Assembly (NCBI RefSeq): GCF_037042905.1
Contig: NC_087251.1
Location: 31,746,001 to 31,810,000 of the forward strand
DNA length: 64,000 nt
Source of the DNA: Lytechinus pictus
Taxonomy: Eukaryota
Direction of reading: 5' to 3'
Each line of letters opens with the position of its first letter. The first letter of the stretch is position 1. Below, piece after piece: positions 945 through 60,713 of the stretch. Made by a program: the position numbers and the translations under genes. Below the pieces are notes generated by a model that searched no databases, was not told where the DNA came from, and worked only from the letters and a program-made list of their open reading frames with translations.

Positions 945-3900
945 AGTGTGGGATTAGCCCCTTACAGTCCAATTGTACTGGCAAAAAAATTATTGCCGCC
1001 TCTTTTCATGCTTTGTTTTCATGTCCACAATATGGATTTTGCTTTTATCGATATACTTAATCTTGTTATTTGCCCACCTTTATGGAGTATCGTTATTTTT
1101 CATCATTTGCATTTTTTATTATATCGATTTTTCTTTGGGCATCTCTCTCTCCAGTAATTATCTTTGATGTATTTTTACTGTCTTTGCTCTCTGACGCGTT
1201 CGTCCGCTCTGCCTACGAAGATTTCTGCTAAATGCTGCCCTCTCTCGAACCTTTATGAATTCGTTATTTGTTTTTATGTGTTTTTGTTTCTCTGTATCAC
1301 TGTTACTTATTTGTTCCCACACAGGACCTTTTATTTTGATTACTCTTCTGTTACTAACTCAATGCCGAAAGTAGTAGTGAATGTTGAGACGCTAACCGTA
1401 CTTCCGTGAATACTTTAACTAATATGCCGTTTTATTCTTTGAGTAATGATGACCTCTCCATTAGTTTAAATACACATAATTCAAATGGCAACCCTCAGGT
1501 TAATTTGGCGTACAACCACTTTGTAGCCAACAACATTAACGCATCATCAGAACTTCTTGATTTTCACTCTGATCATGACTTAATTCGCAATCCATCATCA
1601 GAATACATCACTGAACTTCAATTCAAAAACACTAGTAAACAATTCTCCAAAGATATTTTTTCTTTATTACATTTAAACATAAGAAGCATAAATAAACATT
1701 TCGAAGAGTTCCAACTGCTATTAGACAATAATTCATCTAGACATTCGTTTTCCATTATTGGACTTACAGAAACTTGGTTAACTGACGAATCCAATATTCC
1801 ATTTGCATTAGATCAATATGATTTTGTTTTCAATAATAGGAAAGATAGGCATGGCGGTGGTGTTGCGTTATATGTTTCCCACAATTACGAATACAAAATT
1901 CACGACGAAATCACTAATATGAATGAATATATAGAGTCACTTTTTATCGAAATCAATGTCCCAAATTCCAAAAATATAATTGTAGGTGTTATATATAGAC
2001 CACCAAATTCTAACCATAATGATTTTTTACTTCACCTTTCTAACTTAGTTAGAAATCCATTGTTGGTGAACAAAGATGTTTTTATATTAGGGGATTTTAA
2101 TATCGATATATTGAAGCATGACAGCAACAATACTGCCCATGAATTTCTTGAAACATTTTTGACTTCTTCATATTTGCCATTAATATCAAAACCCACTCGC
2201 ATTGCAGATCGCTCTGCAACCCTTATTGATAACATATTTTGTAACATCATGCCGTCTCCTGATTCTGAAATTATATTATCCGATCTGACAGATCATTTTC
2301 CCATTATGTCACATTTTCCCCTCAAACACTCGTGTATTAATCCTTCCAAGCCATCAAGGCGGAGACCTACTCCCGAGAATCTTGCAAGACTGGGTGTTTC
2401 GTTAGAGTCTGTTGACTGGTCGCCTATTTATAACAATAATGATGCAAACATATGCTTCAATAACTTTCTGAATATTTTTAACAGTGAATTAGATAAGCAT
2501 ATTCCAAAAGTAAAAGATAGACAAACTAACTACAAAAAATCACCAAGACTTCCTTGGATATCTAAAGCACTTTTGCGTTCAATTAACAGAAAAAATAATT
2601 TATATTATAATTCAAAACTTAAAGGTACTCTTCAGGCAAAAACTAAATACACCACATATAAGAATACTCTAACTATGACAATACGTTTGGCAAAGAAAAG
2701 ATATTTCACTGATCAAATAATTCTGTATAAGCACGACATTCAAAATACATGGAAAGTTCTTAAACAAGCAATGAATTTATGCAATAATAAGTCCGATATA
2801 ACTGAAATTAGGTCTAACGGTGATATCATTGGAGATCCTGAAAATATAGCTAATGTTTTTAATGATTATTTTTCATCTATAGGAATTAACCTTGCTAGAG
2901 ACATCCCCCCTTCAACAAAACATTTTTATGATTATCTAGGTACACCTAATTCTAGTTCAATATTTTTCACTCCCGTAGTCAAACAAGATATTACTGATAT
3001 TGTATCTAATTTGAATAATAAAAAAAGTCCTGGTTATGATGATGTCAATAACTTCATTTTAAAAGGTATAATATCTGAAATTGTTGATCCTTTGACATAT
3101 ATTTTTAACCTTTCTCTAACCTCTGGTCAAGTCCCTGATCACATGAAAATTGCCAAGGTCATTCCATTGTACAAAAAAGGTGACAAGTTAAGTATCAGTA
3201 ACTATCGCCCAATTTCTTTATTATCGTCCTTGTCCAAAATTTTAGAAAAAGTGGTTTATAGCAAAACAATTGATTTTTTAAAATCTCACAATATTTTTTC
3301 TAACTTTCAGTTTGGATTTAGAGAAAAACATAACACAGAACATGCATTATTGAATTTCGTTGATAAAGTGGCCCACGCTTTTGATAATTGCTCACATCTA
3401 GTCGGTATTTTTCTGGACTTCTCCAAGGCCTTCGACACCATTAACCATGATATTTTATTACATAAACTTTCTCATTATGGGGTGCGCGGGAAGGCCTTGG
3501 AGTGGTTCAGAAGCTACTTGTCTGATAGACGCCAATTTGTATCTTTGAATGGTCAGGCATCCAACATGCAATCTATTAATTGTGGAGTCCCGCAAGGCAG
3601 TTTGTTAGGCCCGTTATTATTTATCATCTATATTAATGACTTTTGTAAATCATCTGATGTCCTTTCGTTTATACTCTTTGCAGACGATTCCAATATGTTT
3701 TATTCCCATAAAAATCCATATACCTTAGTAAATACTATTAATAATGAACTTTTAAAAGTCACAGAATGGATAAGATCCAACAAATTGTCTCTTAATCTAC
3801 TTAAAACTAAATATATGCTATTTAGCAATTCCATTGATACACTTCCGATGGACATTGTTTTAGATGACACTAATTTAGAAAGTGTCACATTCATAAAATT

Positions 3901-5104
3901 TCTCGGTGTTACCGTTGATAATAAGCTTTCCTGGAAATACCACATAGATTGTACTTGTAAGATTATTTCGCGAAATATTGGCATTATCAATAAATTAAAA
4001 TATCATTTTTCGTCGTCGTCACTTTTAATGCTATATTCTTCTTTGATCCTACCTTACTTGAATTATGGGATACTTGCCTGGGGCAGCACACACCAAACCA
4101 TTTTAGATAGACTGTTGTTACTGCAAAAGAAGTCCCTTCGTATTATTCATAATTCAGCTTTTCGTTCACACACTGACCCACTATTTTTTGACAGCAAATT
4201 GCTGAAGATAAGCGACCTATACTTATTTCATTTAGGGCAATTTATGTTTAAATTTAACAAAAATATCCTTCCACGTGTATTTGATTCTATGTTTCCTCTT
4301 AATCGGTCTTTTCATAATTACCCTACGAGGCAATCTAACGAATTTCATTTACCCCGTTTTAGAACTTTATTGGCAAAGAGTACATTTATGTTCGATGGCC
4401 CTAGTTTTTGGAACTCCCTCGACAATAACATAAAAAATAGCCCTTCCATACATTCTTTTAAAAGAAAACTGAAAAACTTCTTACTTAAATCCTACCGAGG
4501 TCTTCATTACTAATTCCCGCTCGTTACCACCCCCTCTCAGACATCTAGTTATTTTTATTAGTCTTTATCATCTTGTTTTATTCTCTAATTTCGGTCGCAA
4601 TTCGTCCTGTTTCTATTTAAGTTTACTTCTCCTTTTGTCGTCCTGTTCTTGTTCTTGTTTTTTTTTTTTTTTTTCTTCGTGGTATTTTACTCTTTATTAG
4701 TTTTGTCTTGTTCTGTGTGTTATCTTGTTCTTTTTAATCTATTCAGTAAGTCTCCGTAGGCAAATAGCAACCATTGCGTCTCTCCCCCCCCCCCCTCTTT
4801 CTTTCTCTCTCTCCTCTTTTCTCTTCTTTGAGGGAGGTTCACATTATACAAGCTTTGCTTTTGAGTGAATCTCCTATTTCCACAGATACCTTTTTTTTCT
4901 ATTTGAATTATATTTTATAATTTGTCTACGAAATGCACCACATTTTGTATATATCTTTATATGTTAATTATCATGAATGTTTTTTACTATGATTATAAAG
5001 ACAATGATTTGTATCGCAAATATTTGTTACAATGTATGAAAATGATTTGTATCAATATTTATGTTATTTCTGTTGGAAATAAATCTGAATCTGAATCTGA
5101 ATCT
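945..5104 (+). mobile_element. Non-LTR retrotransposon (LINE, L2/Crack/CR1 group) in the last GNPNAT1 intron, sense orientation; 5' boundary approximate
   Basis: Contains an intact APE-RT ORF, a ~570 bp 3' UTR with a stem-loop (4833-4874), AATAAA at 5078 and an (AATCTG)n tail at 5082-5104. No ORF1 or TSD is recognisable. Confidence 0.85.
1424..4513 (+). CDS. LINE ORF2: apurinic-like endonuclease plus reverse transcriptase (~1030 aa; ORF open from 1406, first ATG at 1424)
   Basis: Endonuclease motifs HLNIRS, GLTETWL, GGGVALYV, YRPP, GDFNID, TLIDNIF and TDHFP. RT motifs YRPISLL, QFGFR, FLDFSKAFDTI, GVPQGSLLGPLLF, LFADD and KFLGV. No stops or frameshifts. Confidence 0.95.
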   Translation: MPFYSLSNDDLSISLNTHNSNGNPQVNLAYNHFVANNINASSELLDFHSDHDLIRNPSSEYITELQFKNTSKQFSKDIFSLLHLNIRSINKHFEEFQLLLDNNSSRHSFSIIGLTETWLTDESNIPFALDQYDFVFNNRKDRHGGGVALYVSHNYEYKIHDEITNMNEYIESLFIEINVPNSKNIIVGVIYRPPNSNHNDFLLHLSNLVRNPLLVNKDVFILGDFNIDILKHDSNNTAHEFLETFLTSSYLPLISKPTRIADRSATLIDNIFCNIMPSPDSEIILSDLTDHFPIMSHFPLKHSCINPSKPSRRRPTPENLARLGVSLESVDWSPIYNNNDANICFNNFLNIFNSELDKHIPKVKDRQTNYKKSPRLPWISKALLRSINRKNNLYYNSKLKGTLQAKTKYTTYKNTLTMTIRLAKKRYFTDQIILYKHDIQNTWKVLKQAMNLCNNKSDITEIRSNGDIIGDPENIANVFNDYFSSIGINLARDIPPSTKHFYDYLGTPNSSSIFFTPVVKQDITDIVSNLNNKKSPGYDDVNNFILKGIISEIVDPLTYIFNLSLTSGQVPDHMKIAKVIPLYKKGDKLSISNYRPISLLSSLSKILEKVVYSKTIDFLKSHNIFSNFQFGFREKHNTEHALLNFVDKVAHAFDNCSHLVGIFLDFSKAFDTINHDILLHKLSHYGVRGKALEWFRSYLSDRRQFVSLNGQASNMQSINCGVPQGSLLGPLLFIIYINDFCKSSDVLSFILFADDSNMFYSHKNPYTLVNTINNELLKVTEWIRSNKLSLNLLKTKYMLFSNSIDTLPMDIVLDDTNLESVTFIKFLGVTVDNKLSWKYHIDCTCKIISRNIGIINKLKYHFSSSSLLMLYSSLILPYLNYGILAWGSTHQTILDRLLLLQKKSLRIIHNSAFRSHTDPLFFDSKLLKISDLYLFHLGQFMFKFNKNILPRVFDSMFPLNRSFHNYPTRQSNEFHLPRFRTLLAKSTFMFDGPSFWNSLDNNIKNSPSIHSFKRKLKNFLLKSYRGLHY

Positions 5105-10542: not shown

Positions 10543-11479
10543 AGGTAACATACGAACATACTTGCAGTTGTTGAGCACAATATATTGCATTTTTTGTTTT
10601 GTGTTTGTCTATACCATTTGACTACCCACCCAGGGAGAGGTATCACTCATTAACTTCAGTAGTACCCATGTTGTCCAAGCAACTTGGTGTCAGTTTTTAT
10701 CCCCAAACGGCGTAGATAGTGACAAGATTATGCAAAATGCACCCCTAAATGATAAAATATTTCCTTAAATGGTGTAAATGTTGAGGGACCAGTGAAAAGG
10801 TTTTTTTTCTTTAAAAATGTTGAATACTGGCAAAACTGAAAATTACCCGATTTAAAAAAAACCATCATCGATGCCTTGGGATGGAAATATGACCGTTATT
10901 TTTAATTGTATGGATACCACCTCAGTATGTGAATGACACAAGTGGATATTTAGAACGGGCAATGTAATATTACATTTTCTTTCCTAGTATCTCTTTTGAA
11001 CGTGCACCTTGCTGTTCATTTTCCCTATTCTGCAAATAGCACCGAAACATTACAATCTCAAAACTCTGGACAACAGATCTTTGGGACTTTCCCTGCGCTA
11101 TAGTGGGGCTCAGAATAACCATTACATTTCAAATGGTGGCTACAGTGGATAGTGAGGGAGGGTAGTGAAATTGGATGAAAAAGGGATTATGGAACATTTG
11201 TTGAGGCAGAAGGTCCACAAAGCTTAGGATTACATTTGTTACAAATCATTTTCTGCTTAGCCTAATCCCATAACCCTTGCTTTCAGTTTCAAAACATGCA
11301 TTGAAGGTGCATAGTTGACTTCAACATGGATAAAACAAAGTGTTTTCTGAAGTGTAGGCCTGTAATTCAGTTTACATTAAAGATCAGGCTTCTAAAGCAG
11401 CAAATACTTTGGTGTACATAATACAACACTTTGCCTCATGGACCCTCCCCTATGAACATTGTAAGATAGGGATAATATA

Positions 11480-12285
11480 CAGTGCGTCCCAGAAAAAACG
11501 AAACCGAGATTAAGCGATGATTTATCATAACTTAATCACAAATACAATAGACAAATGACCTACCAATGTAAAGCTTAGAATCTCCTCTTTCATCTGATAT
11601 TACTAAGATTATTCCTCATTCACGCATGAGTGAGCAAAAACAATGTGAAGAAAGGATGCCAAAAACTCATTTGGCAGGGGGTATCTGAATTTCAAAAATA
11701 AAATCACATGCCTTAAAAAGTTCAATATCTGCTCTTTCATTTACCTTAATCACAGAAAATGGTCAAGAAGTAAAGTTCTGTTCTCTCGAAACAATGCTTG
11801 TATTTCCATAATTTCATTAAATAAACGTGTTTTCACCGGTTTCCCACAGAAGCTATCGTACTGTTAACAAGACTTAATGCATGGCTGATCGTCAACAAAA
11901 TGGAGTGTCGAGTGGGTCTGGAGGCTAGCCTGTAAAACCTCTTTTTTTAATGAAATAGTTGAAATTCATGCCTTATTTCAAACAACCAGAACTTTGTTAT
12001 TTCTTGACAATTTTCTGTACTTGAAGTATCAAATTAAAGAACAGATATTGAACTTTTTTTAAATGTGATTTTCTTTTTGAAACCCAGATACAGCCCATCA
12101 AGTGACTTGTTGGTATCCTCTCTTCAAATTATTTTTGCTCACTCATGCGTGAATAATCTAAGTAATTTCAGATGAAAGAGGAGATTCTAAGCTTTACAAT
12201 GCTAGGTCATTTGTCTATTTTATTTGTGATTAAGTTTTGATAAATCATTGATAAATCTCAGTTTCGTTTTTTGTGGGACGCACTG
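11480..12285. mobile_element. Tc1/mariner-type non-autonomous element with long TIRs and TA TSD
   Basis: TA|CAGTGCGTCCCAGAAAAAACGAAACCGAGATT ... AATCTCAGTTTCGTTTTTTGTGGGACGCACTG|TA. Inverted similarity extends over 200 bp inward. A degraded fragment of the family is at ~28838-29060. Confidence 0.85.
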
Positions 12286-13444
12286 TATAACAATATATAA
12301 TAATACTAATAATACGACGTTGCTTGTATAGCGCATATCACTACCCATGGGCGTCTCTATGCGCTTAATAGGAAAATAGACAAAGAAGAGAGAGGATTAA
12401 AGCCATTATGTAGCATATAAATAGCATAAAAATATAAGAATTCAGCATGATTGCTGTTTGTGACGTGGGTCAAAATATCTTGGCACAAGCAGGTTTGAAT
12501 GCCCAATAAGCTTGTTGCAGTCATGTGATTAACAGCTCATAACAGATTACAACTACCAAAAAAATATTTCATTTTGAAAAAATATTCAATTTAATGCCTT
12601 AGTTTAATATGCAATAATGTTTGGTTTACAAGTGGCACAGCTGTTTTTTGCTACTTTATCGGGCAGTATAGTATTACACAAGCTCAGCCGCGGATCCAGC
12701 TGGATTAGAAACAATAGTTTTGAGATGCCGAATATTGTGCAAAGACAATTTGGTATGGTTTTGTGTCTAATCCAGCTAGATCCACGACTGCACAAGCTTA
12801 GAATAAATAATGACAAAAATACCTTCCCAAATCACTTCACTGACAGCTTACCTGGTGTAGAGAAGGGGAAGGAGATAATTGCATCACTTGTTTAAAATGG
12901 AGATATCTGACTGCACAGCGCACATTAATGCCTCCACCAAATCAGATACATAACACACATTCAGGGTGAATGTTAATTTTAAAACCAACAAAATTTCACA
13001 ATTTGAGAATTTTAACTTTATGATTACTGTTCCGAACTGTTCTATGAAGTGACCAAGAAATCATTGGCACCAATGTGTGTACAGATTGGACAGTGTTTGA
13101 ATTAATAAAAATACGTCATGATATGAAATGAAGCCACCTAACCAATGTGGCATTGGTAAGTTAATGACCTTTGAATAAGAATAAGAACATTGAGTTTGCA
13201 CGCTAGTATGCACGTACCAGGGCTTAAATTAATCAAGGTCATCAAAGGTCATGGCTGTGACTAGTCTTAATACCCCTCTCACAGGCCTTGATTTCTTGTG
13301 CCCTTTTGCATTGATAAAAAAATAATGCACACAAAAGCTTTTCTCCAATACAAAATTGAATCAAAAGCCTATACTGTGAAAAGTGCAATCACAAGCTCCG
13401 GTAGTGCGTTCTTAAATGCACTAGTTCAATTCATCACTCCATCC

Positions 13445-15327
13445 TCAGTGTGATTTGTACATTTCATACGTATATTCCTCCGTGTAAGTTGCGTCATATG
13501 AGACGGATATGGAGTCTATTTCAAGCGTAAACTCTCCATCCACGGCATCTCCCATAGTCAGACCAATAGCATTGACGGATTCCAAGTCCGGTGGAGTCTG
13601 CTTGTCCTGGACTCTACCTTTGCTTGACATGAAGAACTTGGTGAAAGGGATCTGCATAGGTTTGGAAAAGAAAAGGGAATCAAGAATAGGCATATGGAAA
13701 ACAGACAGAAAATCAAGGTAAATCCAATGAAACGAGTATCAGTAGAAAATCAAATTTGTTCATGGTGCTAAGTGTTGACCATTCTCATTACGTTTAACTG
13801 TAAGTATATTGAATACTTATGCTTTTCTTAGATTTTTTGCTATCTACACTGGCGGATCCAGGGGGGGGGGCACCCCCCCCCCCTTTTAAAAAGCAAAATT
13901 AAAAATTTGTAATGTAAAAATGCCATTAAAACAAAGGTGTGCCCGCTCTTGAAATTGAAGACCTTTTTTTTTTTGCTTGTCAATTTTTTGGCGGGTACGA
14001 AATATCCTTAATTTGTGGTTGAAAACATTTTTTTTTTTTGCTTGTCAAAATTTTCCTCTGAAAATTTTGCCCCCCCTTTTGGAAAATCATGGTCCGCCCC
14101 TGGCTATTTACAATTGTTTTGTACATGTCAACAGAGAACAATCTAGTGTTTAGAACACAGGACAACACTGAATTTGCATTTTAGAAAACAGAACACAAGA
14201 GATTCTAAATGAACCACAAGATGCAAATTGATATGATTTCTCTAGACACTGTGTTCAATCCTACAGCTTAAGAATATTTAATACTGATCCTTACCGTAAT
14301 ATCTTGCCAATATGGTCCACCTCGTGTGAATATGAAGTAACTCCAAACATCATCATGAGACTCTGTAAAGAAGCCCTTGATCATCAGGTTTACCATGTAA
14401 GCACGACCATCTCCTCGTACCCTCATCTTCAAGACATTGAATGGTGTTAGGTCCATTGCTTGTTTCCTATTGAAGGATTTCTGTCATGCATAAAAACCCA
14501 TAAAGGATAAAAGAATGCAAGCTCGTAATTTTGCTTAAAATACTTAATTAAAAAAATTGGTTAAAAAATGGTAAAATAAAATAATAAGAAAGCATATCTA
14601 GTCTGAAACACATTAAAGGTTTCCTAAATTAGACAAATAATTTGATCTATTGCAATTGAAAATTGTCTACCGATAACAAATAATTTTATATTCTTGTCAT
14701 ATTATACATACTTTTTACTGAATACTTTAAAGCTGTTTCAACTCCATGGAGTATAAAAAAAATCATATTCCTGCTGATATCAAGTTAACGTCTTCTTGTA
14801 AAGTGGTATATTCTACAGATTTGTTAAACATAAGAGTTTTGTTTACTCACATAAGCTTGTTTAGATCTCAAAGCACAGTATCCACTTCTTTTAGTTTCTC
14901 TATCCCTTGGAACCTCAGTGCAGAGGTTACCATGAAACAGCAGCTTATTGTTGCGACTGACAGTCAATCCTGCAGTACTTCTCCCTCCAATCTCAGCATC
15001 AGTATGGACAATAAAGTCTTCAATACTCTCAGGTCCATTAAAATGCCACAACACTCGGTTCTGGTCAAACATAGTGTCAAGGTTTGGACTTCTAATCTTA
15101 GTCCACATTTCCTCACCTAAGAGTTTCACATTCCTATTTAAGAAGGAGAAATAACCTTCTCTGCTCTTGCTTCTTTGATCTGAGCTACTCAGTCTACTAT
15201 TTGAAAGGAAAGGAATAGCTATCGATTGTCTCTGAAGATATGAGCTTTGCTTGAACTGCCAAAGTGTCCTCCACGTGTTCTCCCTCAAACGACAAACAAG
15301 ATGCTTTGGAATCATTGCCATAGTCAC
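13445..15327 (-). CDS. NDUFAF1: Complex I intermediate-associated protein 30 (CIA30), 3 coding exons: 15327-14851, 14480-14295, 13651-13445 (~289 aa)
   Basis: Spliced product has an N-terminal Arg/Ser-rich presequence-like segment, then LWHFNG, TDAEIGGRS, FHGNLCTEVP, KRSGYCALRS, MRVRGDGRAYMVNL, FTRGGPYWQ, IPFTKFFMSSKGRVQDKQ and GEFTLEIDSI. All junctions are GT-AG, phase 0. Confidence 0.93.
13847..14102. mobile_element. hAT-like MITE in an NDUFAF1 intron
   Basis: Ends CACTGGCGGATCCAGG / CATGGTCCGCCCCTG. Flanked by a near-perfect 8-bp TSD GCTATCTA / GCTATTTA. Confidence 0.7.
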
Positions 15328-17261: not shown

Positions 17262-18732
17262 CAGGGTGACCAGACATACCGTATTTTGCTTCTTTGTCCC
17301 GGCGTCCCGACAAACCCTTCCCGGGACGCCTATTTGTCCCGTATGTCAGAATATTGAACAAAATGTAATTAATACATAGAAAAGTGAAGAATTTTCATAA
17401 AAATAACCTGGGAAAATAACCAACAGATGACAAAGGAGAGACAACAATAAAATTACTGTAAACTTTTGCAAGTTCTGCGGCTTGCAATGGCTTCCTGTCT
17501 GTGTGTGTGGCAGGCTACTAGGATCGGAGCAGATTCTCAATGGTGCAAACAATCTCACATGATCAACAGTTTTTCCACCAAAATAATCACAAAATGGGCG
17601 GGCAATTTTAATTTTTATATTATGGATTCTCAGATTACTGATTTGGTGATGTAATCGGTGGAGCAAGATATTGAGTTTTCATAACTAGATCTAGTTGTTT
17701 CAGGTTTCGTTTTAAGTCTTGTTGTGATCAGTGCTAACTTGTCATGGGATGAGAGATGTGTGATGCTGCGATGTTTCATCTAATTTTTAAGTTTGACAAT
17801 GTTTCACTTTGAAATTTTATTCATTTCTAAAACATTTTAGTGTTCTAACAATTTTTAAAATAGATTTTTAAAAACCCAAATATCATGAAGATGATTGGAT
17901 ATTTTTGCTTGCTTGAAGTTTGAACTTTTTTCCTTTGTTTCATTTTTATTTTTTATCCTTCTTTCTTCATCCTTCTATCCTTCCTGCTTGCCTTTTTTTG
18001 TTCCATCTATCTTTATTTCCAATCTTTCCTCGCTTTCTTTTCTGATCCTTTCTCTCTCTCTCTGTTCATTTTTCTTTCTTTCTCTTACTTTCCTTCTTTT
18101 AAATACCTTTTTTTATTTCCTTCATTCTTTAATTCTTTCCTTGAACTTTTCTTTGCTTCCTTCTCCCTTCCTCTCCTTTTCATTTTCGTTCTTTCTCTCC
18201 TTCCATTAGTTTTCTTTTTTTTCATACTCTCCTCTCTCCCTTTCATCGGCTTTCTTTCATTCTTTATTTTCTCTTTTCCCCTTATTCATTCTTTCCTTTC
18301 CTGTTTTTTCCATCTTTCTTTCTTTCAAAGAATGAAGGAAACCTTTTTCTTTCTTCTTTTTTTTTCTTACTTTCTTTTTTTTTCCTTTCTCTCATTTATT
18401 TATTATATCACACATGCATTCATTCATCTTCCCTTCCTTTCTTTATTCATTTCAAAGAATGGCAGAAAGTAAACCTTTTTTTCTTTTATTCATCCGACCT
18501 TTCATTCTAATTTTAAAAAAAAAATTTCCTTCATTTTCATTTCCCCCTTCATTTTGTATTTCTTTCCTCTATTCCATCTCTTTTCTTTCCTATTTTCTTT
18601 CTCTCCTTCATTCTTTCGTTCACCCTCCCTTTCCTTTTCTTATCAAACATTGTGTTTGTTGATTTTTTTTTATCAGTTGCTCCGATCGTGCATCGTGCTT
18701 TTTGTCCCATATTTCATTTTCTGGTCACCCTG
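17262..18732. mobile_element. hAT-superfamily non-autonomous element (~1.47 kb) with internal CT-rich tract
   Basis: 13-bp TIR CAGGGTGACCAGA / TCTGGTCACCCTG, subterminal TGTCCC motifs, and perfect 8-bp TSD AAATGAAC at 17254-17261 and 18733-18740. Confidence 0.88.
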
Positions 18733-19060
18733 AAATGAACGGCAGTGAATTAAATCAAGAAAATGCCAAATGATCCCTCCGCCGGACCCCTTCGAGTCTG
18801 AGGGGAAATATTCCGACCCCCCCCCCCCCCCCCTTTCCGAGCAATAACAATAGTACATTGTCCCACATGTGCTTATCTGTGTTGGTGATCAGTCATCAGT
18901 GCAGAGCAGCGTGATCTTTTCAGCTAGTCTTCCTTAGATTTCAGCCTTTCATGTATTAACAAAGTTCAGTTAATGTACCTGTACCAGATCTAGATCCACC
19001 TACGATTATAAAGTAACAATTAACCTTGGTTTTACAGACTTTCTCATAGAGTGTTTCTGA

Positions 19061-19260
19061 ACTTACCACTTACCCAGGTCGGACGTCGGCCGGCCGCTCG
19101 GAGAGCATCTTTGCCTTTGGTACACGTACCGGTATACATCACGTACGTACATCACGTGCATTATATATATGGGAACCCATTATATTAGTATGTGAGTATA
19201 TGCCATAGAATACATCTCTATGGTATATGCATGCACCGCGACATTTCGGCCAAGCTGAGT
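19061..19260 (-). promoter_or_regulatory. Candidate non-coding first exon/promoter of NDUFAF1
   Basis: CpG-enriched patch ending, on the minus strand, in two tandem GTAAGT donors (19073-19068 and 19066-19061). A matching acceptor lies at ~15447, upstream of the NDUFAF1 ATG. Confidence 0.4.
19196..19230. mobile_element. Putative P-element-type transposon excision footprint
   Basis: GTATATGC-[CATAGAATACATCTCTATG]-GTATATGC: a 19-bp imperfect palindrome between perfect 8-bp direct repeats. Confidence 0.7.
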
Positions 19261-22257
19261 ACGGCCACAGGCAAGGTTCGAGACCAAAAGTTTTAGGGGA
19301 GCTTAGCGGTGCAACAGCCGGGGTTGGGGCAGGAGTGGCAGTCTGCCCACCCTGGCGGAGCTCACCAGGAAAAAAAACCGGGGAAAGCTAAGACAGAATT
19401 AAAGAAAATGAAAAGGAAGAAAAAGAGGAAAGAGGGGGGGGGGGGGGAGAAAGGGGAAAGAATTGAGGGGAAAAAGAAAGCCGATAAATTAAGAGAAGAA
19501 AGGTAAAACGGAAGGAAAAGGAAAAAAACACGAATAGGGGGCCTACGCGTATAGATCTAGGTATAAGAAAAAATAATCCCGAAATACTAATAAATAGGAG
19601 AGAAAGGAGAACCAAGAGATGGCCACGTGGAACGGGAATTTATGGCGGGAAAACTGAGGAGTGAGAAAAGTGACGGAAAATGAAATAGAACAATGAGGTA
19701 AGTATAGACCCCGGTACGTGGTATAGGTCTTAATATGCTCAAGCTGAATTTTTAAAAATGAAGAAAAAAATGAAGACACAGTCTGGGCTACCAAAGATTA
19801 ATAATAAATTAAAGCATGAGATGGCTTATTAATGTATGATAACTTGCTAAATGGCAATAACGATCGCAATCAGGACAATATTACAGAAGATTATTAGAGA
19901 GGTTCCATGCAGAGGTACCGTCCAAGCATTGCCTTATAAATTATGTCAATTTAATGAGGCCTACATAATTTCATTTTCATAGGGCAAAAACTCGCTCTTG
20001 ATGTTATAGAAAATTTGTTTCGTAAAACCTCCGTAAAACCTGTATACCCGCGTGATTTGATTGAAAATAGCGGCCATCAAGGTAAATGACTGAATCTATA
20101 TGGAGAGGAAGGGAGTCCCAAAAATTTCTACGACCAAGAACAAACAAGCAAAAAAAGAAAAGGAGAAAAGAAAGAAAAGCACTTAAAGGACAAGTCCACC
20201 CCACAAAAAATTTGTTTGAATAAAAAGAGAAAAATCCAACAAGCATAACACCGAAAATTTCATCAAAATCGGATATAAAATAAGAAAGTTATGACTTTTA
20301 AAAATTTTGCTTAATTTCACAAAACAGTTATAATAATATGCACGTCCTGAAAAATCCTGTTCACATTATGACCGGGATATTTTTGGCTCTTGCCCCTCCC
20401 CGGCAACCGACCCCTGTTACGCCCCGAGCTTAACTGTGCATGCCTATGAGACTTCTGCAGGGAGCTTGAGAATTTTTGACGTTGTTCATTTCAGTACATG
20501 GAAAATAGTCTATCGTAAGCAGCATGCATGGGTGAAACAGCTAAGGGTCGATCGGCGGCCGGCCGGGCCGCGGGCCGGCCGGCGCGGGGGGGGGGGGGGA
20601 GAGCCAAAAATTTCCTCCCGGTCATATCATGATGTGAACAGGATTTTTCATGATTACACGCGAGCACTATGGTGCGAGGCTCTATGTGAGAGTAGCGTTA
20701 TGAGTAAAAAGATAAAATAAGTAAAAAAATCGCAAAATCAAGCTCGAAGCACAAGCTAAATTTTTTTGGTCCCACTCACTTAAAAAAAGGACCTATCCCT
20801 GTTTGCGTGACACTTTGTGATATTTTCACCAAATAAAATATGCGAGATGAAAAATGTTAATATCCTGATATGATAAGTGGACGTTAGCATTTCTTATGAA
20901 CAGGATGGGTATCCATATATCTAAACAAAAATGCATGCGAGCGCGTTTTAATACTTTTTTGCAATTATGAAATTTATTATGCAAGATGTGTATCTCGCTA
21001 AAACAAATAATGAAAACTCGAATCATGAAAAAAAAAATTATTGTGCATATTGACTCGAACACTGGATTTTTAAGCCCCATGTTATCTTATTAAACAGATC
21101 ATTTATTTATCTAAATCAAAAGTCACTGCGAGCGCGAACAAAATTTTGAATGTTATAAAATGACCTCAATTAAAGTTTTATTTCATATTGCAGGGAACTA
21201 TACCATGACTATATGAGGAAATTTTACAAAATTTGAAGGGTGAATAGTGCTAGCTGTTGTGGATCACTTTACAGCTTAAGTGAGATGCTCATGACAGCAT
21301 TTACATTATTTCTTCAGTTTCGGAATATTCGGGGGGCCGGGCGCGGGAGCAAGTAGGGCAACGATCCTGACCCCCCCCCCTTGGTACCACCACTTACAGC
21401 ATGGTGCATGTGGCAAAAGTTTCTGAATAAAAGTCCCGGGAGAGCGAAGCGAGCGAGGTTTTCTTCTACTTTTTCATTACAAGTGATAGATTTTGACATG
21501 ATCTTATTCCTCTTTCCTGTCCATTTCTTTAATTTCTCCTTTTGTTCTTGGTCGTAGAACTTTTTGGGGCCAGTCCCCAGCAACGCCTTCCATTTTTATG
21601 CCAGTGCTGCTGGGGTCCGAGCGGAACCAGAACCTCTCGAGATTTCATTACATGAAACCTTACTTTTCAATCTGATCATATATGTTTTACAAAACGCATC
21701 ACTTCAATACAGTGGAGTAATAAACCAAACATTTGAGGGGCACAACATGTGAAATGTGGGGATATTTCTAAAACGTCACGAACGAGTTCATTACACTACC
21801 TCATTTCCCGTTTCTGTTTGTCCCTTTTCTTTCCTCTTGAGTCCTGTCATACTCGTTCCCGTTCCATTTTGCCACCTTTCTATATATTTCCCCTTTCTCA
21901 TTCATTAGTAAGTTCTTTCTCATAATCTTGTCTCTGTTTTCCTCTTTCCGCTGAAAACCTTTCCTCTCTTTATAGACTCTTTTCCCTTTCCGTTTCTTTT
22001 TCCCCTCCCTTTCCCCTTTTCCTCCATTTCCTTTCTTTCTTTCGTTTCTTTCAAAGTTTTCCCATTCTCCCCGGTTTTTTTCCCGGAGCCATGCAGGGCT
22101 GAGGGGGGCAGATCGAGGCCGCCCCCGTGCCCCTCGCCGCCTGTTACCACTAAAGAAGACAAGGAATAATATGCCTTGTTAGTTGCTATTATGTCAAAAC
22201 ACTTGTTCTCAAAAGATGTATAGCTAGGCCTACATGCATTACCTCCATGAGTATATA

Positions 22258-23129
22258 GGGGAAGGCGGGGTAAGTTGAGCATAAATTATAGGGGCAAGTT
22301 GAACCACTACCCCCAGGCCAATAATGAATGAGTCAGACACTGTGGTGTTGTCATTGTATTGATGACCCATTGCATAACCCCTAACCCCACCACAAGTTGT
22401 TTTCAACTTTGAAACAAAAAGTACTTTTTTTGAGGGAAAAATACAAATTTCAGCCAAAAAAGTAAAAAAGGGTGCGAAATAGATAAGTGCTTTTTACACA
22501 CATGCACACACGTCTTTAAATAAAATAAAGACCAAAGACTATAAAGAACAACATTGTTAGCCCAGGTATGGAGCTTCATTCTTGTCATAGTCTTTTATAA
22601 TTATGATGGATGCATAAGAAATGTGTGGAAGCGAAATTATCGCATCATGTTCGGACTGGGGTAAGTTGTGCCAGCCGACATGGGGCAAGTTGAGACATGG
22701 TAATTCTTATAATGTAGGCCTATATAAAAAACAAAAAAACCTTAAAAAGCCTTCGATATGCAGACAGAAAGGAGCAAATTTACATGACTGTTCTATTCCT
22801 TTTAGGATGTTGTTATTTATAGAGAATTAGCAAGTGAAAAGACTTTGAATAAAAAAATTAGACATGCTGGTTCTTCCCCCACACATATAGTGTTTGTGGC
22901 TCAACTTACCCCACAGATGGGGCAAGTTGAGCCATCACATCAGACAATGACTTTCAGTGTGGGGATAGAAAGTTATATATAGGTGAAAGATATTTCAGAA
23001 GAATTGAATTTTAAGGCAAGGTACTTATTTCTACAAGATTATAAATAGTATCAATTCCAACATGCAAAAAGCAAAAGGTGGCTTACCCATAGAGAGTATA
23101 CATCTCTATGGGCTTACCCCGCCATCCCC
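22258..23129. mobile_element. MITE with TA TSD and subterminal GGGG(C/T)AAGTTG repeats (Tc1/pogo-like)
   Basis: TA|GGGGAAGGCGGGGTAAG ... CTTACCCCGCCATCCCC|TA. Internal GGGGCAAGTTGA-like motifs at ~22290, 22657, 22682 and 22919. Confidence 0.75.
23080..23118. mobile_element. Putative P-element-type transposon excision footprint nested in the right end of the 22258-23129 MITE
   Basis: GGCTTACC-[CATAGAGAGTATACATCTCTATG]-GGCTTACC: a 23-bp imperfect palindrome between perfect 8-bp direct repeats. Confidence 0.75.
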
Positions 23130-23817
23130 TATATACGGATCTTGTTCATAAAAGAAAGGATCGCGTTGCCCCGCGTTGACAATGCAAGCTTTTACCGTGT
23201 CGCAAAAGGTGGGACGAATGCCTGATACGATATTTCTGATGGACGACGAGTTACACTCATTGTAGAAATGGAAATGGCAGGAGCAAAGTCAAATCGTCGT
23301 ACTCTCTCCAAAGTCTCAACTTATTTTTCATATTTTCTTTGTCAGTTTTCTTAATATTGGCATACTGACGCGATCATGGCGGCTTAAAGAATCACAGTCG
23401 GCGGAAAGTCCTTCGAGAGGATTGTTTATTCCAACTCTAAATAGAATTCGCCGAACTGTTTAATAAATAAGCCTAGGCTTCACGTCTTACGACATCACTC
23501 GCAAGTCGCAGTCGATCGGAGTGTGCAATAGCCAATAAACTGGGAGGAGCTGCCTATCCGTCCGTCCAGCCAGGTTGTGTGCATTGAAGTTTGAACTCAG
23601 CCACATCTTTTTGGGGTGCTAATTCGCTTTGCTGTCCTTGGCCCTTGGCTGTGTAGTGTAGACCCTTCAGAAAAGACGCAGGATCTAATTGGGTGTACCA
23701 TACAGTACAGGCTTAAAATCTACTCCATCAAGGATCAAGGCACTAGGCCTAGTCAGCAATAATAATTTGTCATTGAGTCATTTGTAAATTAAAACAATCC
23801 CAGATCACATCCACACA

Positions 23818-26669
23818 ATGTCAAAAGCTACCAAACGCAAACATGTAACAAGAGAGGTTCTGGAAGATTATATTTTGCCAGAGGAAAATCAACAAATTTT
23901 GAAGGTTAGTAGTAAAAGTAGAGTCTTAAACTTTCACTTGGCCTAGACTTGGTCATGTTGGTCTTGGAAGTTTCGCTTGGCCATGAAACTTTTAATGAAA
24001 TGGCTCAGTCAGTGAGCACATCTCATGCTTGAGTAAACACCAAACTTCAAAGTCAAACCTTGTTTTCTCCTTATTCTTTGGAGCACTCAGTGTTACATTC
24101 AATCAAATATTTATTTTGGTTATTGATCAATTTTCATCTTAGTTAAAAGTTAAAGGTAAAAGACAGTAGGGCCTACCAATTGGCAATAGTTGCAGCAAAC
24201 AATTATTTCATGAGAAAGTCTTTTAATCAAGGTTAATTGTCAAGATATTATCAATTAAATCTAGATCTGGGATCTGTTTCATAAAACTTGTTACAATAAC
24301 AAATTTACAAGAACAGTTAAAAGCTACTGAAATCCTTTAATCTGATTGGCTGATGGTAAATTTGTTATAGAAACTCTGCATTTGTTGCAACAAATCGTAA
24401 TGAAACAGGACCCAGGTAGATCTACTTTATGTAAACTTATCTTTGTAAAAATCATGAAATCAATGGCTCAAAATCGATAATTCTGATGATTACTAACACA
24501 GAAAAGCTATGTGGGAGAGTGTATTAATATTGCTTCGAAAAATACCCAGCATTTGATGGAATTCCATGCTTATTTTGCTCATTTCTCAGCAATTAACACA
24601 TTATCTTCCAGAGGCACATATTTTTTTATTTATACATATACAAACACTTGGGTGGTAATTTCTATTGATTTTGTTCGAACTTGTTTTGAAAAAGCTACCA
24701 CAACTGGTATTTATCTTTAAAGCTTAGAATGTGCTTTTTCAAGCTCAATAATAATCTAAAAATTCATCAGGGGTGATTTTTTGTTGGTGTTGGGGTGGCA
24801 GGCAGGTCACAGTTGATCTCAAGTTGGAAAAAGTGATGCATTTTGGAAGTGGTTGAATTTCTAAAACGTGACCAATAAATAGATGCTGTATTCAACTTTT
24901 AAATTGATAATTTCCTACTGTTGAAATAATTACAAACTTGTTTAAAAAAACACTCAATTTAATTTAATCATTTGTGATTTGCTTTTGCAGATACTTGGAG
25001 GAAGAGGAAACAATCTTCATGAAGCTCAGACATCTGAAGGAGATAAATTCCTGATCAGTATGCCAACCAGGTTTAGGAAAAATGTCTGGATAAAAAGGGG
25101 TAAAAGAAATATTCTATCAGTCATTTTCTGGATTAAGTGTTGAAAATTATTGGCATCAATGTCTCCTTATCAGACAAAATAGCTTTTTGCAAAACTCTTT
25201 TCATACAATATCTGTCATTTTCCCAAAAATGTTAACCTGTAGAAACAATATAAAGTATATTACAAAATACAAAGTATATTGCAATTGATAATGCACTTGC
25301 CCTGCATGCATGGACATTATCACTTGAAATAACTAAACTGCATGTGCACGGACCAAACATGTTCACAAGGAGTGAGTTCATAAAATGATGATAAATGTGC
25401 TTTTTTTTTTAAATTTGATTACATGTAGGTGACTTTGTGCTTGCTGACCCTATTCTAGAAGGTGATAAAGTGAAGGCTGAGATTGTTGCAATTCTCTACC
25501 CTAAGCAGATCAAATATATCAAACAAGAACAACTATGGTAGGTATATGCAGGTCCATGGTATATGTAATTTACACATTATGCACTTATACCAAGTCTCCC
25601 CAAAGTGAACATTTTTTTAAAGGTTCCTTGGGGTGCAGGGTGAATTTGCCCCTGTAATGCCTAAAAGATCCCCGGAAACTAATACAATATCACAAAGCAA
25701 CAATGTCCCGATAGTATTAGTTGAATAATTTATATGTTTTATGGCTTGGATTGGCTTTTCAGGGATAAAATAACGGGGGTGCAGTAGTCTGCTGGGCAAA
25801 CCCTTCACTCGAGTTAAGGGTCTGAATGTGCAGCCTACTCATGCCTTGTGTACTGAAGGCTCTCTCGCAAGTTTTGTATGTGCTAGTCTTTGCGTGGAGG
25901 CACACTTGTTGATCAAAGTTCCAATCAGGGTCTGTGCCTGCAGACTAGGGGTGCAGAGTGAATTCGCTCCTGAATGCCCCAAAGAGCCCAGATAACTGTA
26001 ATACAACATCACAAAGCAACATAGTCCTGGGGCCCGTCTTACAAAGAGTTGCGATTGATCCGATTAATCGTAACTATGGAAAGCCAGCAAAGTCAACATA
26101 TAAAATGCATGTTTGTCCAAAAGATTTTCTAGATATGAATGTATATCCATGAATTTATTGATTTCTTGACCATTTGGTGTGTTCTCCTTTGTTTACAAAG
26201 GAAATTTTGCAAATTTCTTGTAGAAAAAATTATGGCACTGATGGATTTCCATAGAGTTACGATTGCTTGGATCAATCGTAACTCTTTGTAAGACGGGGCC
26301 CTAATAGTATTAGTTGCATAATTGATACCTTTGGATTCTCATTGTGTTACTAGGCCTCAAGGTTTTGTCACAGGAGCCAGTGAGATTAGGAATCAAAACC
26401 CAGAAGGCACTGAAGTAGAGGCCTTGACCAACCAGCTCAATGATGCATCCATAGCTGACAGAGATGTAGAGGAGAATAACGGGATCTCTGATGGAGAAGA
26501 GGATTATAGTAGTGAAGACAATGATGATGACTTGTTTGTCAATACAAACAGACCCACAGTTACATATTATTATTCAGATAGTTCAGAAGAAGACGAGGAA
26601 GAGGAGGAAGACGATTGTGAGGGGGAGGTTCAAGAGGTAACAGATGAAGATCATAGTGCGGACCGATAG
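23818..26669 (+). CDS. EIF1AD: Probable RNA-binding protein EIF1AD, 4 coding exons: 23818-23904, 24991-25099, 25429-25537, 26354-26669 (~206 aa)
   Basis: MSKATKRKHVTREVLEDYILPEENQQILK/ILGGRGNNLHEAQ...LISMPTRFRKNVWIKRG/DFVLADPILEGDKVKAEIV...QLW/P, then an acidic tail with DDLFVNTNR. GT-AG junctions are in phase. Confidence 0.95.
24150..24720. mobile_element. TTAA-flanked non-autonomous element (Kolobok-like) with nested Harbinger-like MITE (24269-24413); second copy at ~63306-63714
   Basis: TTAAAGGTAAA...AGTTGCAG ... CAACTGGTATTTATCTTTAA. Colinear with 63306-63714, which lacks the GGGATCTGTTTCATAA...TGAAACAGGACCC insert. Confidence 0.7.
26029..26301. mobile_element. Palindromic MITE (Harbinger-like) in EIF1AD intron 3
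   Basis: GGGGCCCGTCTTACAAAGAGTTGCGATTGATCC ... GGATCAATCGTAACTCTTTGTAAGACGGGGCCC. Confidence 0.8.
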
Positions 26670-39389: not shown

Positions 39390-59298
<19,909 letters not shown>

Positions 59299-60713
59299 CT
59301 GCAGAGAAAAGGAACAAATAAAACCTTTGTCATACAATACAAACATTACAGAGTTAAATTGAAGTGTAACATGCGAATTAAATAGGAAGAAAGTTGATAC
59401 AGGCATATTAAAATGGGTAAGGCTGAGACATGCATGTTAACGTAGACATTATGTACATACAGGTGAAAAAACAGAGACCATCAATACGTCATCTTTGTAA
59501 TCTGTACAATAAAGCACTTCTTACAAGACATACTCTACCAAACTTCACGACTGATATATTTGACAAAAAATTTGACAACATTTCAAAGATAAGGGTATAA
59601 ATAATAGGAGATAATTCAAATAATAAAGGCTTTTTTCTTTGCAAAATAATTAAATAAATAGCATTATACCATATATCATGTGGAGAATTGACCTTTCATT
59701 ACAATGCCTGTTTTTGGCTAGTTTAATCCCCTCAAATAAGTCTATCACTACACCAATTCATTACCAGATTATAAAATGTCTATGCCTTAAAACAGTAATG
59801 GTGTGGAGGATATGAAATGAAAACATTGTAATTTAGCATGAAAATTTATCTTGATCTGCGTGTTTCATTATTTTAAAGTTTTTTTATCTTCTTTTTATTT
59901 TTTATAATTCCAAATCATGGAATGGGTGAAAATTTGAGGATATAATGTTTGTCTGACATAGATTTCTGATATCCAATCACTAAATTAAAAAGAAACATTA
60001 AAGCATTGTGGATATTGATTGATTGATGATACTTGGGTATTCTTATTATATTCCACATACTACATGTAAGAATCTTGCTGTAGGATTGGTCAAAAGTTGG
60101 TCACGTGATAAAGGTTAGTTTCCCTATCAATCATCACTCGCTGTAATGGAACTTTTGTGTGTTCGCTGATCGTTTTCAGCCCATAGGGTCATAACGCATT
60201 ATGAATTAATTTGAATACGTGCACATTTTGCCACTGGTTTTTTGGTCCATCATTCTTCCTCAACTGCAGTGACGATCACGCAAGGTCTATATGGGCGCGC
60301 CCATTGTACATATGCGCAAAAAAGTGCATTGCCCTGTTGGAGCAAGATCTCGGATGCTTGCGCACAGTTTGCATACACGCTAACATTAAAACAAGCATAA
60401 TCGTCTCGATTGATCTTTTTTTTCAAAGGAAACCTTGATTTGAAAAAAAATCATAAGAGAAGTATTAATATCGGTTACTTCATTTATAGTGGTTCTCGAT
60501 GCGGAATATAAAACATATAATTACCTCTTGATTTCAGGTGATGAGGCAAACTATCACTTTCTCGGCAAGCTGGATGTACTCGCTATCTTTCCTCAGCTTC
60601 GCTCTGGAAAGGTAGCTACATCCAGCTTGCCTCGTAAGTAATAGTTTTCCCATCACCTTCATCACCAACAGTGATTATATGCTTACTATCAACCATCTAC
60701 CAAAGCTTTAACC

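Follow-up and report, generated by a model that had tools for sequence, protein, structure and literature searches.

A probable pair of P-type excision scars upstream of a sea urchin EIF1AD gene

Genes and repeats of the locus

The window (the entire 64-kb stretch of sea urchin DNA analysed here) carries two short inserts, termed scar 1 and scar 2, which lie 3.9 kb apart between two divergent coding starts: that of EIF1AD on the plus strand and that of a CIA30-domain gene on the minus strand (Table 1). The original prediction had placed scar 1 upstream of EIF1AD, and the identity of this gene is confirmed by its match to human EIF1AD, with the start codon situated 700 nt downstream of the scar. 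Scar 2 lies 4588 nt upstream of the same codon, and these two distances (n = 2) are too few to show a promoter bias like that of fly P. A donor-like CG/GTAAAA on the minus strand near 23195 (~23194–23197) hints at a candidate noncoding first exon of the CIA30/NDUFAF1-like gene, in which case both scars would reside in its first intron; the coverage of organism A (introduced below) ends at 23191.

Table 1. Positions, in the window, of the two scars, the repeat that hosts scar 1, and the flanking coding exons
Feature	Position	Strand	Remarks
CIA30/NDUFAF1-like coding exons	13445-15327	-	CIA30 domain
Scar 2, left copy of 8-bp duplication	19196..19203	.	GTATATGC
Scar 2, 19-nt remnant	19204..19222	.	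Ends as in scar 1 (6 nt + 13 nt)
Scar 2, right copy of 8-bp duplication	19223..19230	.	GTATATGC, identical to left copy
Host MITE of scar 1, ~0.89 kb	22251..23136	.	24-nt inverted arms; bounded by either TA or TATA
Scar 1, left copy of 8-bp duplication	23080..23087	.	GGCTTACC
Scar 1, 23-nt remnant	23088..23110	.	Pieces of two transposon ends: 8 nt + 15 nt without overlap, or 24-nt palindrome lacking one base
Scar 1, right copy of 8-bp duplication	23111..23118	.	GGCTTACC, identical to left copy
EIF1AD first coding exon	23818..23904	+	Human EIF1AD match, E 4.9e-06

Scar 1 splits the right-hand terminus of a MITE whose arms (22251–22274 and 23113–23136) are 96% complementary and which occurs at very high depth, as a high-copy repeat, in two whole-genome runs. 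Between 22267 and 22935, a 14-nt motif akin to the terminal repeat of this MITE occurs five times in direct and once in inverted orientation, with pairs of motifs spaced 24 nt apart; the copies are likely to be transposase-binding repeats.

Mobile elements of several other kinds occur in the window. Positions 17262–18732 are occupied by a 1471-nt element with 13/13 inverted ends starting CAGGGTGACCAGA (CAG) and a perfect 8-bp duplication (8/8), which looks nonautonomous and of the hAT type; its ends are unrelated to those of the scars, and it is the one convincing element among 26 candidate pairs of long inverted ends. An open frame of 1041 aa with endonuclease and reverse transcriptase domains (1388–4513) is apparently an intact non-LTR retrotransposon ORF. 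Foldback or MITE-like elements with long arms are situated at 11476–12289 (139-nt arms), 58239–58742 (161 nt), 41796–42471 (46 nt), and 26029–26301 (47 nt), and a protein kinase C-like gene has its exons, among them one with a C1 domain, at 40161–59436 on the minus strand.

Anatomy of the two scars

Scar 1 consists of a 23-nt insert (23088–23110) with a perfect 8-nt terminal inverted repeat and with GGCTTACC on both sides, so that the claimed insert between perfect 8-bp duplications is indeed present at 23080–23118; its predicted fold is an 8-bp stem with a 7-nt loop. Scar 2, which was absent from the original prediction, is flanked by a different 8-mer and is predicted to fold into a 6-bp stem, likewise with a 7-nt loop. 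The sequence common to both scars amounts to 6 nt at the left end and 13 nt at the right, and the existence of a second site with its own 8-mer bears out the expectation that the duplications flanking this transposon family are variable.

An exact scan of the 64-kb window (8-mer duplication, insert of 12 to 60 nt, terminal inverted repeat of at least 4 nt) returned five matches: two have an inverted repeat of at least 6 nt, and both of these begin CATAGA, and the remaining three involve low-complexity 8-mers. When windows were simulated with a fourth-order Markov model and an inverted repeat of at least 6 nt was required, 58 of 60 contained no match, two contained one, and none contained two. 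Under a base-composition model, a second site with such arms and a duplication is expected by chance ~9e-10 times. Outside controls comprised 22 prokaryotic genome stretches and two viral stretches with the arm pattern, plus one viral palindrome (L008, described below); among these 25 loci, none has seven or more of its eight flanking bases duplicated (range, 0 to 5 of 8), versus 8/8 at both sites of the window. Because the control loci are without duplication, the tie between such ends and a duplication is specific to the source genome. The simulations, the expected count, and the controls exclude a chance origin of the two scars. A third candidate scar at 50725–50754 (a 7-mer duplication with one mismatch) is attributed to chance, as relaxed scans yield at least one match in 56 of 100 simulated windows.

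Evidence on the site before insertion comes from contigs of 4 of the 14 listed public runs, compared over positions 22900–23500. At least four loose ends at 23071–23080, from three runs and two organisms, run on into the terminal repeat without the insert; since these paralogous MITE ends continue uninterrupted, the insert of scar 1 is secondary to the MITE. Together with the second site and its other 8-mer, they uphold the view of scar 1 as an insertion scar. Removal of the insert plus one 8-mer had been said to restore the MITE end, and the end so obtained is continuous, but it is ~5 nt shorter than both the left end and the paralogous ends. This shortening predates the insertion because both copies of the 8-mer carry the shortened form, and the order of events would thus have been insertion of the MITE, a small deletion, insertion of a second element, and loss of that element. 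Among the matches listed for the four runs, no contig bridges scar 1 and its unique flank, and positions 23131–23172 are without coverage there, a gap that carries no weight as evidence. For scar 2, the search for an empty site led to the repeat at 18846–19046, which has a paralog near 63.4 kb, and this alignment stops short of the scar.

Only 12 to 13 nt of the terminal inverted repeat (TIR) are firmly reconstructed. Positions 10–15 of the reconstructed end are self-complementary, and therefore two single-stranded tails of this sequence could pair into a perfect 24-nt palindrome, relative to which scar 1 is short by one base and scar 2 by five. For this reason, the proposed parse of scar 1 into 8 nt of a left end and 15 nt of a right end fits, but it is one among several, and the palindrome less one base fits equally well. 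The length of the duplication is subject to a similar latitude: both 8-mers begin with G and end with C, so the boundary can slide by one base, and a 6-bp duplication with CCAT..ATGG ends also fits both sites, leaving the inverted repeat intact and the empty site unchanged in each case. The remnant arms measure 6, 8, 13, and 15 nt (all shorter than 17 nt, though four arms are too few to establish a cap at ~17 nt per side), the long remnant exceeds the short one by 7 nt in both scars (n = 2; this shared difference may be chance), and neither join has any microhomology within the known 15 nt of the end.

Parent element, family, and age

No parent element was recovered from the loci searched. In the window itself, none of the 26 candidate long CA..TG pairs starts with the scar end. 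Searches with the 15-mer found the partner end together with a duplication in none of 34 loci from a viral collection and in none of 113 metagenome loci (from 17 of 64 parts, out of ~470 loci estimated in all, and with full flanks for 80), and both collections may hold no host DNA. In prokaryote genomes, the arm pattern matched 22 times, in no case with a duplication. The partner end alone occurs in a single one of the 34 viral loci, L008, where a 54-nt palindrome of a giant-virus contig (positions 3001–3054) shares the same 14 terminal bases. As a parent, this palindrome was rejected: its flanks match at 5 of 8 positions, no other such site occurs in its 434-kb record, and a 451-aa ORF has its start codon in the final three bases of the palindrome. 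Three tandem 10-mers lie inside it, and its likeness to the scar ends is taken as coincidence.

The P superfamily is defined by an autonomous element whose transposase, of the GTP-binding RNase H type, bears a THAP domain. The scars appear to behave like a P footprint, and the defining long element with a THAP transposase is absent from the loci searched. Among the traits of the superfamily (P, Galileo, and THAP9-type elements), a variable 8-bp (7 to 8) duplication is seen as perfect, different 8-mers at both sites, where the 6-bp parse also fits, and the CA or CAT end is seen in both remnants, which read CAT..ATG. Subterminal transposase-binding sites and internal inverted repeats, also traits of the superfamily, would lie in the full element. 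The ends of fly P and of zebrafish Pdre2 likewise start with CAT (accessible portions of PMC2895639 and PMC10983969). Repbase classifies nonautonomous elements by the alignment of terminal positions 1 to 11, with at most one mismatch to a classified member (PMC4455052, in excerpt). Over its first 11 bases, the scar end matches fly P at 6 and Pdre2 at 5, with only these two elements as references; the end sequence gives no family call, because the true members fly P and Pdre2 themselves agree at only 3 of 11 positions. Target preference is similarly indecisive: the scar sites match the 14-bp palindromic P motif at 3 to 5 of 14 positions and the hobo motif at 4 to 5 of 8 (motifs as given in the accessible part of PMC2577343), P and hAT are not separated, and the targets of hobo and Hermes likewise begin with G and end with C. 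Taken as a whole, membership of the scar family in the P superfamily is plausible. In the literature covered (a partial set that includes few subscription papers and lies outside Repbase), we found neither sea urchin scars of this kind nor any mention of this end sequence.

The original prediction had called the excision recent, and this claim is unsupported. Organism A, whose unique flank is ~4 to 10% diverged from that of the window, appears to hold DNA matching scar 1: in its two high-depth runs, the depth table has single-copy coverage over 23089–23109 and on to 23115, with no listed difference. Such coverage, a measure of depth only, suggests that this organism holds DNA matching scar 1 and part of the right 8-mer. 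The match may derive from the same site, the scar then being older than the split, or from another scar of like form. Contigs of organism B are identical to the window for 185 and 111 nt and, among the matches listed, end before scar 1. As to its consequences, scar 1 is most simply regarded as an inert alteration of 31 bases at the end of a MITE, and nothing indicates that EIF1AD or the CIA30-domain gene is affected; both scars are inert leftovers, for which we claim no function.

Staggered excision, its alternatives, and known systems

Both inserts are likely to be donor-site scars of one cut-and-paste transposon family, and the best reading of the pair, which we regard as reasonably probable, is excision by a long staggered cut followed by end joining; on this basis, the two would most likely be excision scars of the P-element kind. 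A deep staggered cut is the simplest account because the lengths and junctions of the scars differ, their arms are shorter than 17 nt, the duplications are intact, and the ends start with CAT. The Drosophila P transposase generates duplications of 8 bp, and its cut on one strand lies 17 nt inside each end, in agreement with what the original prediction had stated; this stagger of fly P is called unusual (accessible text of PMC7776569). The P-element donor site retains 17-nt 3′ tails, and in junctions from Rad51-mutant flies, two copies of the duplication enclose a piece of the left end followed by a piece of the right end, with unequal arms in some and a blunt 12 + 13 join in one (PMC2895639 and its Table 1, in the accessible portion). 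Most of the fly junctions listed in that table use microhomology or insertions, whereas both scars lack microhomology in the known 15 nt, a difference that counts against the comparison.

As we envisage it, an element would have inserted and duplicated 8 bp (the duplication is observed; 8 and 6 bp both fit), after which the transposase would have cut one strand at the tip of the element and the opposite strand deeper in, by at least 13 nt and possibly by 15 to 17 nt. By analogy with Drosophila biochemistry, both flanks would then have borne identical single-stranded tails of end sequence, which host end joining might have trimmed and joined variably, yielding the observed 8 + 15 and 6 + 13 products; repair would have taken place in the germ line, with the product subsequently inherited. 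If the tip of a 17-nt tail provided a 2-nt microhomology at scar 1, positions 16–17 of the parental TIR are predicted to be T and C, and, given the self-complementary positions 10–15, a perfect 24-nt palindrome is predicted to be a common class of scar.

Several other origins would produce at least some of these features. One that we consider unlikely is aborted gap repair, in which a hAT-type or other flush-cutting family with 8-bp duplications excised, end bases were copied from the sister chromatid, and the copies were then joined. Duplications of 8 bp are also made by hAT elements, the G and C at the borders of the scar 8-mers recur in hobo and Hermes targets, and the 1471-nt CAG-ended element with its perfect 8-mer attests that other 8-bp families are present in the window; moreover, a sister or homolog can template repair of the donor site (PMC5499845, in part). 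Against this stands the brevity of the remnants: both scars end within 15 nt per side with their duplications intact, where we would expect a broad range of longer lengths, and the 64 kb contain no longer, internally deleted copy. Hairpins on the flank, in addition, usually damage the duplication. The hAT, MULE, and Transib transposases form hairpins on the flanking DNA at cutting, which also agrees with the earlier statement that hAT excision normally leaves no TIR remnant, unless the ends are copied back (PMC5499845, accessible part).

It is similarly improbable that the element collapsed independently of any transposase, by replication slippage across its folded-back form, leaving a 24-nt palindrome that later lost one base in scar 1 and five in scar 2. 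A collapse of this sort, which resembles the “nearly precise excision” of Tn10, depends on the self-complementary 6-mer at positions 10–15, which both arms carry in direct orientation. In keeping with this origin, each scar can be derived from the same perfect 24-mer by simple deletion, but the secondary deletion is needed in two of two scars even though 32 of 32 duplication bases are unchanged, and scar 2 is without part of the 6-mer that slippage needs.

The deep cut itself could belong to another lineage. We think it doubtful that the parent comes from a non-P superfamily (for instance, one that fits the 6-bp parse) with a long staggered cut of its own, in which case the 7-nt difference would mean that the two ends are cut or protected unequally; to our knowledge, a long staggered cut has so far been described only for P. 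Were the parent such a non-P deep cutter, the scars would naturally record a cleavage geometry not yet described, together with the choice of repair in the germ line. Less probable still is a non-P family with 6-bp duplications (as in IS3EU-like elements) and CCAT..ATGG ends that also cuts deep inside its ends: the one-base slide of the boundary at both sites would accommodate it, but its preferred flank bases would have to equal the terminal bases of the element, a coincidence that the 8-bp parse does not need, and CAT ends combined with 8 bp fit P. Finally, that the unit of 19 to 24 nt is a mobile microelement inserted as such is highly improbable, since the two units, for all that each has the formal MITE marks of terminal inverted repeats and a duplication and that DNA matching scar 1 is apparently present in a second organism, are unlike in length and junction and are without the internal binding sites beyond the tips that P-type transposases require (PMC7776569, in its accessible text).

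Staggered excision with end joining, if it is indeed the origin of these natural scars in a noninsect animal, would mean that deep cutting is common to distant relatives and that end joining in the germ line is frequent. The presence of two scars in 64 kb suggests that such scars are common, and genome-wide counts of scar lengths would yield the cut depth of each family without an enzyme assay.

Among known systems, hAT elements are alike in their 8-bp duplication, which is the length seen at both sites here; in hAT, MULE, and Transib excision, however, end joining leaves no end sequence, whereas 19 and 23 nt remain in the scars and the duplications are intact (PMC5499845, accessible part). 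Zebrafish Pdre2/THAP9 is a deuterostome P-like family that resembles the scar family in its CATA ends and 8-bp duplications, but only 5 of 11 end bases agree, and its excision in cultured cells gave larger flanking deletions rather than clean remnants (PMC10983969, in the portion accessible). With respect to the Drosophila P junctions, the scars differ in being natural, inherited, and located in a noninsect animal, in an end that departs from that of P after CAT (6 of the 11 first bases match), in target sites that do not clearly resemble the motif preferred in the fly, and in that the cut and the repair are here deduced from sequence. The likenesses to the P{wa} junctions of Drosophila melanogaster are nevertheless detailed: the 8-bp duplication is kept on both sides, the pieces of end sequence are shorter than 17 nt, the arms are unequal, and the ends start with CAT (PMC2895639 and PMC7776569, accessible portions). 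The scar pair is most likely a natural example of the product known from the fly P experiments.
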